Assembly: GCA_963745035.1 (NCBI GenBank)
Contig: CAVUVW010000011.1
Coordinates: forward strand, 224,001 to 288,000
Reading direction: 5' to 3'
From: an uncultured delta proteobacterium
Lineage (GTDB): Bacteria; Desulfobacterota; Binatia; UBA9968
DNA: 64,000 nt
Below the pieces are notes generated by a model that saw only the letters and a program-made list of their open reading frames with translations, made no database searches and was not told the DNA's origin. Position 1 is the stretch's first letter; the number at the start of each line of letters is the position of its first letter. The position numbers were made by a program, and so were the translations under genes. This document shows, piece by piece, positions 1-40,256 of this stretch.

Positions 1-187
1 GGCGATGAAACAGCTCAAGGCCGACCCCGGCACAACAAGCATTCCGGTCATCGCGATCACCGCGTCGGCGATGACGCACAACAGGACGACTATGCTGGCG
101 GAGGGATTCGACGGCTACCAGACCAAGCCGATCAGTCTGAAAGATTTTATCGGGGAAATTGAAAGAGTGCTTTCAGTACACAAGTAA
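1..187 (+). CDS. Single-domain response regulator (CheY/DivK-like), 5'-truncated by the window edge
   Basis: C-terminal REC motifs LKADP..IPVIAITASAM..GFDGYQTKPI. Confidence 0.85.
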   Translation, partial: AMKQLKADPGTTSIPVIAITASAMTHNRTTMLAEGFDGYQTKPISLKDFIGEIERVLSVHK

Positions 188-793
188 ATCCGAAGCACGA
201 ATTTCGAAATCCGAAACAAATTTCCAATGCTTAAATAACAGAAAATACAAAACTGCAGCTAAAGATTCGCTAGCATAAGATACAAATGGAAACCGTCGGG
301 CTAGGCACAGCCAAAACGAAGCCACCAAGAAAATATGATCTGGAAGATCGGACCCTTGAGTTCGCCAAAAATGTGCGGACATTTGTTCGGCAAATTCCGA
401 AAACCATAGCGAATATTGAAGATTCTAAGCAAGTCGTTCGATCGTCCGGCTCCATTGGCGCAAATTACATAGAAGCGAATGAATCTATCGGCAAGAAGGA
501 CTTCCTGATGAGAATCCGAATCTGCCGCAAGGAAGCTAAGGAAACTCGTTATTGGTTGCGCTTGATTGAAATCGTCGACAATCCGACTCTGGAGAAATAT
601 AGGGTTGAGCTCATCGGGGAGGCGACCGAGTTAATGAATATATTCGGCGCTATTCTTCGTAAAAGCGAATAGATCTTTGAAATTCAGAAGGCCCCGAAGG
701 ATCTAATTCGGAGTTCGAAGTTTTGAATTTTCTTCGTTTGACATGCATTTGATTGTAATTTGATTCGGATTTCGAGATTCGGATTTCGATATT
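186..793. mobile_element. Inverted heptamer-repeat cassette (arms 186-220 and 759-793) enclosing the four-helix-bundle gene
   Basis: Left arm aaatccgaagcacgaatttcgaaatccgaaacaaa matches the reverse complement of the right arm at 27/35. Inner stem 241-254 vs 719-732 matches at 13/14. Mobility is inferred only. Confidence 0.6.
286..672 (+). CDS. Four helix bundle protein (23S rRNA intervening-sequence protein / TIGR02436-like)
   Basis: 128 aa with family motifs DLEDRTLEFA, QVVRSSGSIGANYIEA, DFLMRIRICRKEAKETRYWLRLI; AT-richer than its neighbours. Confidence 0.9.
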   Translation: METVGLGTAKTKPPRKYDLEDRTLEFAKNVRTFVRQIPKTIANIEDSKQVVRSSGSIGANYIEANESIGKKDFLMRIRICRKEAKETRYWLRLIEIVDNPTLEKYRVELIGEATELMNIFGAILRKSE

Positions 794-798
794 ATTGA

Positions 799-1914
799 AT
801 GAATACACCTCCCAAAATTCTCGTGGTCGATGACACGCCGCGGAATGTAAAACTTCTCGCGGATCTGTTGGTCGTGAAGGGCTACGGCGTCATCACCGCG
901 GATTCCGGACGCGAGGCTTTGATCAAGCTCGATGCCGAGCAGCCGGACTTGGTCTTGCTCGACGTCGTCATGCCGGAGATGAGCGGCTACGAGGTGTGCC
1001 GCAAGATCCGTGAAAACTCCGCGACGGCGATGCTGCCGGTCGTCATGGTAACGGCGCTCGATCCCGCCGAGGAGCGAGTTAAGGGGATCGATGCCGGCGC
1101 TGATGATTTTCTCAGCAAGCCGATCAATCAAACTGAACTGCTTGCCCGCGTCAAGTCGCTGCTTAGAATCAAGGAGCTGCACGATACCGTGCGAACCCAA
1201 TCCACGCAGCTTGCCGAGTGGAATCAAAGGTTAGAGGGGCGTGTTCAGGAACAAGGGGAACAGCTGGAACGTTTGGAGCGACTGAAACAATTCTTCTCGC
1301 CGCAGCTTGCGGAGATGATCGTCAACGGCGGGGCCGAGGATCCGCTGAAAACGCACAGGCGAGATCTGACCGTCGTTTACTTGGATCTGCGCGGGTTTAC
1401 CGCCTTCGCTGAGAGCGCCGAGCCGGAAGAAGTGATGGACATCTTGCATGAGTATCACGCGGCGATGGGAAAATTGATCGACGAGTACGAGGGGACCGTC
1501 GAGCACTTCGCCGGCGACGGCATGATGATTTTCTTCAACGATCCGGTGCCGGTCGATAACCCGGCGGAGCGGGCGGTGCAAATGGCGCTGGCGATGCGCG
1601 CGCAGGTGAAAGAACTGACGGTCAAATGGCGCAAGCTTGGCCACGATCTTGACTTCGGCGTCGGCATCGCCCAGGGGTACGCCACCATCGGCGCCATCGG
1701 ATTCGAAGGGCGCTGGGAGTACGGCGCGATAGGAAGCGTCCCGAATTTGGCTGCTCGTCTTTGCGGTGAGGCGAAGCCGGGAGAAATCTTGGTTCCGCAG
1801 CGCTTGCTCGGCAAGGTGGAAGACGTGGTAGAGGCTGAATCTGCCGGTGAATTAACTCTGAAAGGTTTTCATCGACCCGTGAGCGCATACAATGTTCTGC
1901 GACTCAAAGTGTAG
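799..1914 (+). CDS. Response regulator-adenylate/guanylate cyclase (REC + class III cyclase)
   Basis: REC: ILVVDD, DLVLLDVVMP, DDFLSKP. Cyclase: YLDLRGFT, GDGMM, GIAQG, NLAARL. Confidence 0.92.
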   Translation: MNTPPKILVVDDTPRNVKLLADLLVVKGYGVITADSGREALIKLDAEQPDLVLLDVVMPEMSGYEVCRKIRENSATAMLPVVMVTALDPAEERVKGIDAGADDFLSKPINQTELLARVKSLLRIKELHDTVRTQSTQLAEWNQRLEGRVQEQGEQLERLERLKQFFSPQLAEMIVNGGAEDPLKTHRRDLTVVYLDLRGFTAFAESAEPEEVMDILHEYHAAMGKLIDEYEGTVEHFAGDGMMIFFNDPVPVDNPAERAVQMALAMRAQVKELTVKWRKLGHDLDFGVGIAQGYATIGAIGFEGRWEYGAIGSVPNLAARLCGEAKPGEILVPQRLLGKVEDVVEAESAGELTLKGFHRPVSAYNVLRLKV

Positions 1915-1917
1915 CAA

Positions 1918-2077
1918 AAAGTCGAAGCACGAAATCCGAAATCCGAAACAAATTCGAATGGTCAAAAAAAATGGAATGTTCCAAACGGTGCTGATTTCTG
2001 ATTCCGCGTTTGGAATTTGCCCGCGTTTTGGATTTGTCTGTCTTTGTTTCGGATTTCGAAATTCGAATTTCGGGTTT
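1918..2077. repeat. Gene-less copy of the heptamer (nnnCGAA) inverted-repeat element
   Basis: Arms aaagtcgaagcacgaaatccgaaatccgaaacaaa and tttgtttcggatttcgaaattcgaatttcgggttt; inner stem ttccaaacg/cgtttggaa. Confidence 0.85.
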
Positions 2078-2096
2078 TGAGGTAGTAGGAGATGCC

Positions 2097-3753: not shown

Positions 3754-3779
3754 AAGCGAGGAACTTCTCGGATTTATCG

Positions 3780-3803
3780 CGCAAAGGCGCAAAGACGCGA
3801 AGG
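3780..3803 (+). repeat. 8-bp period tandem repeat CGCAAAGG/CGCAAAGA/CGCGAAGG
   Basis: Read directly from the sequence; adjacent to the element at 3814. Confidence 0.55.
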
Positions 3804-3813
3804 TAGGAGAATC

Positions 3814-3973
3814 AAATTCGAAGCACGAAATTCGAAATCCGAAACAAATCCGAATGACCGAAAACCAGAAATCTGAAACGAGTCTGAAATCGGATTTATT
3901 TTGAAAATTTCTTCCGATTTTGACTTATTGCTTCCAACTTTGTTTCGGATTTCGATATTCGGATTTCGGATTT
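3814..3973. repeat. Second gene-less copy of the heptamer inverted-repeat element
   Basis: Arms aaattcgaagcacgaaattcgaaatccgaaacaaa and tttgtttcggatttcgatattcggatttcggattt; inner stem aaatcgga/tccgattt. Confidence 0.85.
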
Positions 3974-3983
3974 ATGTTTAAAG

Positions 3984-12372: not shown

Positions 12373-12389
12373 GGTCGAGTGAGTAAAAT

Positions 12390-12518
12390 TGGAGTGTTGG
12401 AGTGATGAAGCATGTGGAGTGATGGGTTTCGGAGTCGGGCGCTGCGCAAGGTCGAGTAGGTTGCGCAAGTTTCGGGCTTGGAACCAACACTCCATCACTC
12501 CAATACTCCACCACTCCA
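12390..12518. repeat. Octamer (TGGAGTRN) inverted-repeat hairpin element
   Basis: tggagtgttggagtgatg..tggagtgatgg versus ccaacactccatcactccaatactccaccactcca; inner tgcgcaa/ttgcgca. Confidence 0.8.
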
Positions 12519-16298: not shown

Positions 16299-16303
16299 GG
16301 TGA

Positions 16304-16382
16304 TGGAGTGTTGGAGTAATGGAGTATTGGGGAATCCAATCCGGAACCAACACTCCACCACTCCAGTACTCCAACACTCCAA
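16304..16382. repeat. Octamer (TGGAGTRN) inverted-repeat hairpin element
   Basis: tggagtgttggagtaatggagtattgg versus ccaacactccaccactccagtactccaacactcca. Confidence 0.85.
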
Positions 16383-17460: not shown

Positions 17461-17488
17461 TGGAGTGATGGAGTAGTGGAGTATTGGG
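17461..17488 (+). repeat. Single arm of the TGGAGTRN octamer repeat
   Basis: tggagtgatggagtagtggagtattggg, 11 bp after a stop codon. Confidence 0.7.
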
Positions 17489-35999: not shown

Positions 36000-37050
36000 T
36001 CAGAAGGCAATAGGCAATAGGCAACCGGCAACAGTTCAAACGAGGAAGGAACTCTATCGTGACTCGTTCGGTATATTAGTCCTTATTGGCTTATTACTTT
36101 CGCCGGAGATTGGCTCCACGCAAACGCGCGAAAAGATCCGGGTTGCGCTGGGATCGATCTCGGTCAATTCGAGCGTAATCCCGATCGGCGCGCAGCATGG
36201 GCTTTTTGCCAAGCATGGCGTCGATCTGGAGCCGATCTATTTCGGCGGGGGGATGAATTCCATTGCGGCGCTTACCTCGAATTCCGTGCAGCTGCTGGCC
36301 GCGGGGTCGACCGCGACGGTGGGCGCGCGCGTTGGCGGCATCGACATCACCATGTTGGCCATGCAATCGAGCAAACTCGACTATTCGGTCTTGGTCGCGC
36401 CTGATGTGAAAATGCCTCAGGACCTCAAAGGCAAGATTGTCACGGGCACTCGAACCGGGGCGTCGGCGGATACCGCCTTGCGTTTGTATTTGCAAAAACA
36501 CGGGCTCGTCCCCGATAAAGACGTCATCTTCATTTCCGTGGCCGACAGCCAGCAGGGGCGTTTCAATGCTTTGGTGCGTGGTGTCGTCGCCGGGACGGTA
36601 TTGCCGCCGCCTTACAGCACGGTGGCCAAACAGCAGGGGTTCCGTGAGCTCGCCGATCTGCGCAAAACCGACATCGAATATTCAGGGACGTCTATTGCCG
36701 GCATCGGCTCCTACATCAAGGCTCACCCCGCTGCGATGGAAGGTTTTCTGAAGGGCTACATCGAGTCGCTGCATTTCTTCCGAACCCAAAAAGAAAAGAC
36801 CATGGCGGGCATCATGAAATACATGCGCATCAGCGAGCGGGCGCGCGCCGAAGAGGGATACGACTACTATGTCGAGATGATGCCTGTGATGCCCTACGCC
36901 AGCCCTGCCGGTGTGAAAGCGGTCCTGCATTTTCTCGGCACGCGGAATCCCAAGGCGGCGAGCGCGAATCCCGAGGAGTTCTACGATCATAGTTTTCTCA
37001 AGCGAATCGAAGATAGCGGCTTTGCCAAGCCCTTTGCGATTCGACGTTAG
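35989..37050 (+). CDS. ABC substrate-binding protein (NMT1/SsuA/TauA-like); true start possibly GTG 36059 with an indel
   Basis: [29 protein letters not shown]; RBS gaggaagg upstream of 36059. Confidence 0.85.
36005..36034 (+). repeat. Heptamer AGGCAAY tandem repeat
   Basis: aggcaataggcaataggcaaccggcaacag immediately after the acs stop. Confidence 0.75.
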
Positions 37051-38100: not shown

Positions 38101-38131
38101 AGGCAACAGGCGTTAGGCAACAGGCAATAGC
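38101..38131 (+). repeat. Heptamer AGGCAAY tandem repeat
   Basis: aggcaacaggcgttaggcaacaggcaatagc after a stop codon. Confidence 0.7.
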
Positions 38132-40227: not shown

Positions 40228-40256
40228 CGGCATCAGGCAAGAGGCACAGGCAACAG
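40228..40256 (+). repeat. Degenerate AGGCAA heptamer repeat
   Basis: cggcatcaggcaagaggcacaggcaacag after a stop codon. Confidence 0.6.

Follow-up and report, generated by a model that had tools for sequence, protein, structure and literature searches.

To our knowledge, PF05635/TIGR02436 is a very common bacterial protein family of no known function, which is known as an open reading frame (ORF) of rRNA inserts and as a relative of Avd from diversity-generating retroelements. Two other systems are relevant here. In REPIN-RAYT systems, dispersed intergenic hairpin repeats are tied to one protein gene which is itself flanked by repeats, RAYT being a Y1 transposase, and TRAP of Bacillus is a ring protein that acts on spaced GAG repeats. 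A report on Coxiella's intervening sequence (IVS) describes a 28-bp stem of terminal inverted repeats, cut by RNase III inside the stem in vitro, and two or three tandem GACAGAT heptamers plus a degenerate one before the start of the S23p gene; the S23p relative Xcc0516 is given there as a homopentamer of four-helix bundles (PMC4990558). According to two further sources, the family is present in 16S and 23S insertions of candidate phyla radiation bacteria (PMC11270868), and Avd is a pentamer with conserved Avd-binding RNA stem-loops (bioRxiv 10.1101/2023.10.23.563531). Here we describe a gene of this family within a hairpin cassette at positions 186-793 of a 64,000-nt stretch (the window) of contig CAVUVW010000011.1 from an uncultured bacterium of the class Binatia. 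Arm, gene and inverted arm together make up a discrete cassette, which recurs in distant phyla with the same arm sequence around a gene for an orthologous protein. In its own genome, it is the single gene-carrying ("loaded") copy of a dispersed element.

The cassette is 608 bp long (Table 1). Its arms (186-220 and 759-793) form 27 Watson-Crick pairs over 35 positions plus two G.U pairs, and an inner stem (241-254/719-732) is paired at 13 of 14 positions, exactly as reported in the initial annotation. The left arm carries four CGAA cores at 7-nt spacing and then ACAAAT, in agreement with the earlier description of four nnnCGAA heptamers plus ACAAA. An inverted-repeat search recovered both the arms (32 nt, 84%) and the inner stem (15 nt, 93%). 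The best ungapped inverted match of the flanks scored 19; over 500 shuffles, such scores averaged 7.6 and peaked at 13. When 180-800 was folded as RNA, a check that had been suggested from the sequence, the minimum-energy structure paired both the arms and the inner stem; its energy was -182.9 kcal/mol, compared with -154.4 ± 7.8 kcal/mol for shuffled sequences (z = -3.65), and none of 20 shuffles was as stable. The proposed borders were also confirmed in the sequence. The cassette begins at the stop codon of a response-regulator gene, whose TAA (185-187) shares two bases with its 5' end, and it ends 5 nt before the ATG (799) of a gene encoding a receiver (REC) and a cyclase domain. No Shine-Dalgarno sequence was present in the 5 nt preceding this ATG, and no promoter-like or terminator-like site was found within 186-793. 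The GC content was 41.8%, compared with 54.6 and 58.2% in the adjoining genes, so the cassette is AT-rich.

The protein of 128 aa encoded at 286-672 matched PF05635 (E = 1.9e-13, 51 bits, cut-off 33.8) and TIGR02436 (E = 1.8e-19, 69.9 bits, cut-off 24), and its earlier assignment to the IVS family therefore stands. The structure model (pLDDT 85.9) contains helices at residues 19-36, 41-65, 70-93, and 100-127. The best Foldseek matches were 2rld_E (E = 1.5e-5) and 2gsc_E (E = 8.2e-4), which are BT_0352 and Xcc0516, followed by the Avd structures 4dwl and 8ub7, in line with the structural kinship to Avd that had been claimed. All five chains (A-E) of both 2rld and 2gsc were among the fold matches. 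A profile search of the PDB by sequence also returned 2rld (E = 6.3e-15), and the Avd model NF033474 was not reached by the window protein. Among the 54 cassettes with recognisable arm ends, the identity at codon positions 1, 2, and 3 of the gene was 0.70, 0.79, and 0.39, respectively (38.6% at the third position), which indicated that the gene is under purifying selection.

The genome (7.4 Mb in 28 contigs) contains many further copies of the arms. Within the window, the arm motif matched 12 times compared with 1.04 expected, a number reached in none of 100 shuffles. The additional sites at 1929-2067 and 3832-3969 proved to be full hairpins that share these arms and enclose about 90-100 nt of loop sequence but no gene; they lie 1.1 and 3.0 kb downstream and had been overlooked in the initial annotation. 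The 11-nt motif TTCGGATTTCG occurred 64 times in the genome, compared with about 3.5 expected, and its sites form 18 convergent arm pairs, 17 with loops of 72-140 nt and one, this cassette, with a loop of 559 nt. Fifteen gene-less copies, including the two in the window, could be aligned end to end, and most of them share an asymmetry, with GAAGCACGAA in the left arm opposite TTCGATATTC in the right arm. A profile built from the 15 copies matched the loaded copy in two collinear pieces on both sides of the gene, with profile positions 15-86 at 184-256 (E = 4e-13) and 62-172 at 678-790 (E = 1e-14). The loaded copy therefore consists of a whole gene-less element plus a 421-nt module (257-677) at its apex; equivalently, the gene-less copies may be seen as internal-deletion derivatives of the loaded form that were later multiplied. 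Gene-less derivatives have thus multiplied in this genome.

The same arms were also found far outside the class. The 25-nt arm core TTCGGATTTCGANATTCGRATTTCG occurred exactly in at least 123 stretches of a species-representative genome collection, whose hosts, among the matches listed, were Planctomycetota, Verrucomicrobiota, Lentisphaerae, Patescibacteria, Desulfobacterota, Aminicenantes, Nitrospirales, Acidobacteriota, Proteobacteria, Calditrichota, and Binatia. When 80 of these loci were inspected, a matching left arm was present 50-120 nt upstream in most of them, and 5 were loaded, with proteins 61-69% identical to the window protein; paralogues in the own genome, which have other repeat units, were at most 35% identical. 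In the reverse test, 80 metagenome loci were chosen by protein alone (61-73% identity), and 69 were usable, with at least 150 nt on each side. At least three tandem nnnCGAA units were present on both flanks in 47/69 loci and on at least one flank in 59/69, and the inverted-repeat score reached 14 or more in 51/69 loci compared with 1/69 after shuffling. Arms with at most two mismatches were present in 25 of 41 related genomes, and the reversed-pattern control gave no hit in any of them; this tally includes the unpublished genome G005, publication from which needs the consent of its depositors. The cognate protein clade (E at most 1e-25) was found in 5 of the 41 genomes, the assemblies being fragmented. 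On plasmids and phages only relatives of about 34-41% identity were seen, and no transfer vehicle was found. A gene annotated as a 'four helix bundle protein' lies within inverted AAAAGTA heptamer arrays on plasmid pANACY.01 of Anabaena cylindrica PCC 7122 (L226:400-1170). A Nostoc plasmid (L227) has a similar gene, whose surroundings yielded no inverted repeats of 14 nt or longer.

To compare the flanks of all family members in the genome, as the initial annotation had advised, inverted arms were scored at the 20 PF05635 matches. Arms scoring at least 14 flanked 9 of them. Ten of the 20 matches are near full length, covering at least 95 of the 106 profile positions, and 8 of these ten were among the 9; the other two near-full-length loci scored 12 and 13, with similar arms visible. 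These arms consist of tandem 6-9-nt units which differ for each gene (AGGCAAT, CGTGATT, GTTCAAnnn, AATGGAT, AAGGATA, ATTTCCG, and TAGTGAGT). A second subfamily was scored in the same way: it comprises genes whose products are 33-55% identical to that of the AAGGATA-armed gene, from 21 further genomes of the phylum, and five own-genome loci and one locus with a short flank were excluded. All 24 usable loci had arms scoring at least 14, compared with at most 13 in the controls, so the expectation that other family members have inverted flanks was borne out. Eighteen loci had a repeat period of 7 and six a period of 9-10; again, the units differed. These results indicated that each protein clade has its own repeat unit. 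A second-subfamily cassette in a genome of the same class (L241:1444-1900) lies between co-oriented genes that resemble, as named by eye, the R and M genes of a type I restriction-modification system.

The conservation of the arms was then compared among the 54 cassettes. The CGAA columns were 83-100% conserved and the terminal CGAAACAA 91-100%, compared with 39-59% for the spacer triplets, and the arm cores were much better conserved than the saturated third codon positions. In the variable arm columns, the paired fraction was 0.48, compared with 0.507 ± 0.019 when the right arms were permuted, showing that the spacers do not co-vary. The sole co-varying column was the G of each core, because in seven cassettes the repeats on both sides have CTAA/TTAG where the others have CGAA/TTCG (metagenome loci L187, L191, L196, L197, L198, L216, and L225). 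At the position of Arg125, these seven proteins have T six times and E once, and 50/71 CGAA-type proteins have R; at the position of Asn118, six of the seven have H. In a quick tree, six of the CTAA-type proteins formed a weakly supported group (SH-aLRT 88) and one stood apart. The view of the arms as a complementary stem is thus upheld for the pairing and not for a perfect, co-varying stem, and the conserved feature is the spaced CGAA motif. A fixed, spaced core with free, non-co-varying spacers and a concerted switch in both arms would fit a homo-oligomer that reads one core per subunit, and such a pattern would hardly be expected from selection for a plain duplex.

The junction between the regulator and the cyclase was readable in 10 loci of the same genus besides our own. 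Three of them (G015, G019, and G004) have an orthologous PF05635 gene at the junction, which is 68-71% identical, next to a cyclase that is 77-83% identical. All three carry the same arm family, so the armless retention of the gene in relatives, which the initial annotation had considered, was observed in 0 of 3 cases. The other 7/10 junctions contain unrelated gene-less hairpins, which are often nested, with outer TAAGGAG heptamers starting with the stop codon and inner CGCAAAGG octamers; a truly empty site was not found among the 10 junctions. In a quick cyclase tree, the loaded state did not form one clade, and the well-supported branches require at least two changes, which indicated that the junction is a place of turnover. 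In two of the loaded loci (L008 in G019 and L009 in G004), the gene is separated from the right arm by an additional gene-less hairpin, complete and of the same family. The protein match of L009 begins at residue 33, with an indel relative to L008 as judged by eye, and this gene may be broken. In G012, a cognate cassette (G012:C110:22162-23844) stands directly 5' of a paralogous REC-cyclase gene (66% identical) and not at the orthologous junction.

The loaded cassettes run with the host genes. In the metagenome set, which represents the clade of the window protein, 41/42 upstream and 35/37 downstream flanks were co-oriented, counting only decisive flanks (28 upstream and 26 downstream were undecided). 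In the second subfamily, the corresponding numbers were 14/14 and 17/17, giving 107/110 decisive flanks for both sets together. The loaded cassettes also fit closely between stop and start codons: an upstream ORF stop lies within 60 nt in 41/54 cassettes, 34/41 of these at -2 to +6 nt from the left end, and a downstream start lies within 60 nt in 39/54, 16/39 of these within 10 nt. The overlap TAA|AT of stop codon and cassette end, as seen here, occurred in nine of the 54. In the own genome, all 16 copies of the arm family run with the flanking genes according to a crude home-made gene caller; these 16 copies are not independent, because several share one region of contig 11. Of 83 gene-less hairpins of the own genome, 63 occupy co-directional, 15 convergent and 5 divergent spacers, and divergent spacers are underused by them (5/83 compared with 16% of all spacers). 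A search with Rfam found rRNA beside 0/80 related cassettes and a tRNA gene downstream of 2.

Taken together, we lean toward the reading that the cassette is an rRNA-IVS-type unit in operon transcripts whose protein reads the repeats. The initial annotation had proposed an IVS-like unit in an mRNA operon. Its structural part holds, since the family is the same and both a terminal inverted stem and tandem heptamers are present, and the strictly conserved stem does not. Such a cassette would have no promoter of its own and would be transcribed by read-through within the operon RNA. Folding of the arms would leave the upstream stop and the downstream start only a few bases apart at the base of the stem, and the insertion would therefore cost the host little, as does an IVS that lengthens an rRNA helix. 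By analogy with rRNA IVSs, the long stem may be a substrate of RNase III. The protein may be a homopentameric ring like Avd, which would recognise the CGAA cores every 7 nt on its own arm, one per subunit and with the spacers free, in the manner of TRAP on GAG repeats. This recognition would control folding, processing or the translation of the protein itself, and possibly the spread of the element.

Several observations weigh against this reading. The arms carry four clear cores and not five, as a presumed pentamer would predict. The link between Arg125 and CTAA is supported by a single clade and one locus besides, and a single origin is possible. In 31 gene-less hairpins of other phyla, the arm mismatches comprised 63 G.U and 51 A.C; with no clear excess of G.U there is no positive sign of selection on the sense RNA, although this is not decisive. 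The gene-less copies of other phyla also showed no bias in orientation, either by pattern strand (upstream + 5 / - 8, downstream + 8 / - 6) or by the GAAGCACGAA marker (upstream + 7 / - 9, downstream + 11 / - 8), and these counts are uninformative because the marker can sit in either arm and the gene direction was guessed from long ORFs. The close fit of the cassettes between stop and start codons was counted without a random-position control. The Anabaena plasmid gene mentioned above lies between cas2 and cas1 and is antisense to both. Arm hits were numerous in genomes in which the cognate gene was not found, with 50 in G009 (93% complete), 23 in G023, 23 in G029, and 22 in G024. The protein is therefore not needed to keep gene-less copies, and a role in their spreading is unsupported; the absence of the cognate gene is not proven, because the assemblies are fragmented. 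As for RNA data, four of 8 runs gave short contigs, which lay on the cyclase gene with 0-1 differences and on 215-366 and 571-806 with 7-8 differences, the latter from a relative, and usable ends were not present. A joint 221>760 appeared in one contig, which probably stems from a gene-less copy at another place.

A DNA transposon of the type of miniature inverted-repeat transposable elements (MITEs) is an unlikely explanation, in which the arms would be terminal inverted repeats for a transposase encoded elsewhere, the gene a passenger or an accessory, and the gene-less copies MITEs. The inverted termini, the many short gene-less copies with alignable interiors, the patchy occurrence across phyla and the nested elements at the orthologous junction agree with it. 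So do the survival of gene-less copies without a cognate gene and the lack of co-variation in the spacers, which would suit two protein-binding ends rather than a stem. However, a target-site duplication was not seen, since direct repeats of at least 4 nt occurred in 9/54 cassettes compared with a permuted mean of 4.5 and a maximum of 11. The cassette contains no transposase, and the Y1 transposase loci of the own genome lack such arms: around the 5 PF01797 matches of the genome the best inverted score was 8-11 at four places (two neighbours merged). Moreover, the co-orientation of 107/110 flanks and the placement at stop codons are unexpected for a cut-and-paste element, and the arm type follows the clade of the enclosed protein.

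We also give little weight to an intercistronic RNA element that serves the host, with hairpins as processing, stabilising or translational-coupling signals and the protein as a domesticated RNA-binding regulator. Successive junctions of the operon (kinase, regulator, cyclase, and cupin) all have a hairpin, the 16/16 own-genome copies follow the direction of transcription, the gene and its arms are kept at the junction in four species of the genus, and the gene is under purifying selection. On the other hand, 7/11 orthologous loci have unrelated gene-less hairpins, the loaded state changed at least twice on the cyclase tree, and the cassette has a higher AT content than the genome. In many phyla, unrelated genes neighbour the same arms and protein, and the PF05635 copies of the own genome, many of them partial, are crowded into an island together with toxin-antitoxin-like pairs and fragments of introns. 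Finally, the possibility that an ordinary small gene lies between two AT-rich spacers which are complementary by chance, to which nothing but the low complexity of the arms lends any support, was rejected: the shuffle controls (motif counts, fold, and inverted match), the 64 genomic motif matches compared with about 3.5 expected, and the exact conservation of the core in other phyla leave it practically no probability.

The features of the locus are collected in Table 1. The whole response-regulator gene, which starts upstream of the window (L022:1311-1685), matched PF00072 with E = 6.9e-25. The operon order is kinase, octamer hairpin and GxxExxY cassette, regulator, PF05635 cassette, cyclase, gene-less copy, and cupin.

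Table 1. Positions of the cassette, its neighbours and the two nearby gene-less copies in the window.
Feature	Position	Strand	Basis or remark
Response-regulator gene, 3' end	2..187	+	PF00072 on the piece in the window; gene start upstream of the window
Left arm: AAAT, four CGAA cores every 7 nt, ACAAATT	186..222	+	Matches the profile of gene-less copies (positions 15-51) and the cross-phylum consensus
Inner stem, left half	240..254	+	14/15 complementary to 719-733; also in gene-less copies (profile match 184-256)
Four-helix-bundle gene (128 aa), 23S-rRNA-IVS / S23p family	286..672	+	PF05635, TIGR02436, structure model
Inner stem, right half	719..733	+	Inverted-repeat search, profile of gene-less copies
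Right arm: the left arm inverted, TTCG cores every 7 nt	757..793	+	Tandem period 7/14; holds the 25-nt cross-phylum core
Downstream host gene: receiver and adenylate/guanylate cyclase domains	799..1914	+	PF00072, PF00211
Gene-less copy between the cyclase and cupin genes	1918..2078	+	Arms 1922-1953 / 2043-2075, loop about 90 nt
Second gene-less copy, 3' of a binding-protein gene	3814..3975	+	Motif scan, genome alignment of copies

A census with Tandem Repeats Finder, made without a shuffle control, gave 139 inverted array pairs in 59 unit classes, with loops mostly shorter than 140 nt; some of the classes (e.g., CCGGCG) are probably coding or due to chance. The loops of about 370-520 nt contain PF05635 genes, and one contains a GxxExxY / PD-(D/E)XK gene. 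This gene lies between CGCAAAGG octamer arms and matched TIGR04256 (E = 1.7e-42) and PF13366 (E = 7.8e-42). It is located about 0.2 kb 5' of the window at the junction of the histidine kinase and the response regulator (L022:729-1295 = C11:223228-223794), where a gene-less copy of the same element, a hairpin with CGCAAAGG arms, directly precedes the GxxExxY cassette. The arms of this cassette abut the start and stop codons of its gene, so a second cargo family is seen in a like architecture. A second, decayed GxxExxY gene has similar arms, and armed loci thus make up 2/3 of the GxxExxY loci in the genome.

Other arrays were noted in the window. A lone GCGCAAAG octamer array (3779-3803) lies just 5' of the gene-less hairpin at 3814-3975, and its unit is the arm unit of the GxxExxY cassette. 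Hairpins and a half-hairpin of TGGAGTG / CCAACACT octamers occupy gene junctions at 12389-12518, 16303-16382, and 17461-17487. This class is the most numerous in the genome, with about 25 pairs over four related classes, and no gene-carrying copy of it was found there. Lone AGGCAAY heptamer arrays occur at 36005-36031, 38101-38127, and 40229-40256, with no inverted partner close by. Those at 38101 and 40229 come after genes with similar 3' end sequences, and on contig 2 a PF05635 gene is bordered by this unit too (C2:83036-83469). Elsewhere in the genome (L013/L014, C13:1772500-1799000), about a dozen PF05635 matches, several of them decayed, lie within 25 kb together with toxin-antitoxin-like pairs and pieces resembling the reverse transcriptase of group II introns (named by eye). 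This stretch may be an island or a graveyard of cassettes.

These results place PF05635 members in a defined element, which is found mainly at operon junctions, has spread between phyla and has left gene-less hairpins behind. No description of such cassettes in mRNA operons, of their gene-less copies or of clade-specific repeats was found in the literature, subscription journals and supplements aside. The occurrence of PF05635 genes in unrelated operons would thereby be explained. This concerns the restriction-modification-like operon and also the cas loci, inside which 18 genes of the family lie, e.g., between cmr3 and cmr2, and were read as possibly associated in function (PMC3936711). PF05635 genes should thus not be taken as functional partners of their neighbours, and for annotation, the dense intergenic hairpins of the genus are remnants or relatives of such cassettes. 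The conservation pattern, a clade-specific fixed core every 7 bases with free spacers, also offers a testable guess at the target of the protein. We tentatively extend this guess to the family, whose proteins might be ring-shaped, sequence-specific readers of cores every 7 (sometimes 8-9) bases, with a core specific to each clade. If so, PF05635 proteins would have their binding arrays in the cassette arms, in the gene-less copies derived from them and perhaps also in the heptamer arrays that have long gone unexplained in many bacterial genomes. The switch from CGAA to CTAA in both arms would then go along with an altered protein, in this case one lacking Arg125, and the cassette would be a self-recognising unit of RNA and protein, able to settle in any transcribed helix or gene junction.

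Compared with REPIN-RAYT, the element likewise combines a population of short hairpins with one repeat-flanked gene. However, the window protein is a small helical bundle in which no catalytic motif is known, its repeats consist of arrayed 7-9-nt units, and some genomes in which no cognate gene was found contain gene-less copies. With TRAP it shares, by analogy, a short conserved core at fixed spacing and free spacers next to the gene of a putative homo-oligomeric ring, whereas the fold is different and four cores face a presumed pentamer. Avd of diversity-generating retroelements has the same fold, with a pentameric barrel in solved relatives, and binds an RNA stem-loop beside its own gene; there was no reverse transcriptase beside the window gene, and no repeat of the template/variable (TR/VR) type was found in 100-900. 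The closest system is the 23S rRNA IVS of Coxiella burnetii, with S23p, and of Leptospira. Unlike these, the window cassette lies between protein-coding genes of an mRNA operon, abuts stop and start codons and has many gene-less copies in its own genome; excision by RNase III is known for the rRNA IVS and would be a prediction for the cassette. In both, terminal inverted repeats form a stem whose loop contains a PF05635 ORF, and heptamers in tandem (GACAGAT in Coxiella) stand between the element end and the start codon. Both are also AT-rich relative to the host, run with the host transcript, and have a sporadic distribution which suggests horizontal transfer.

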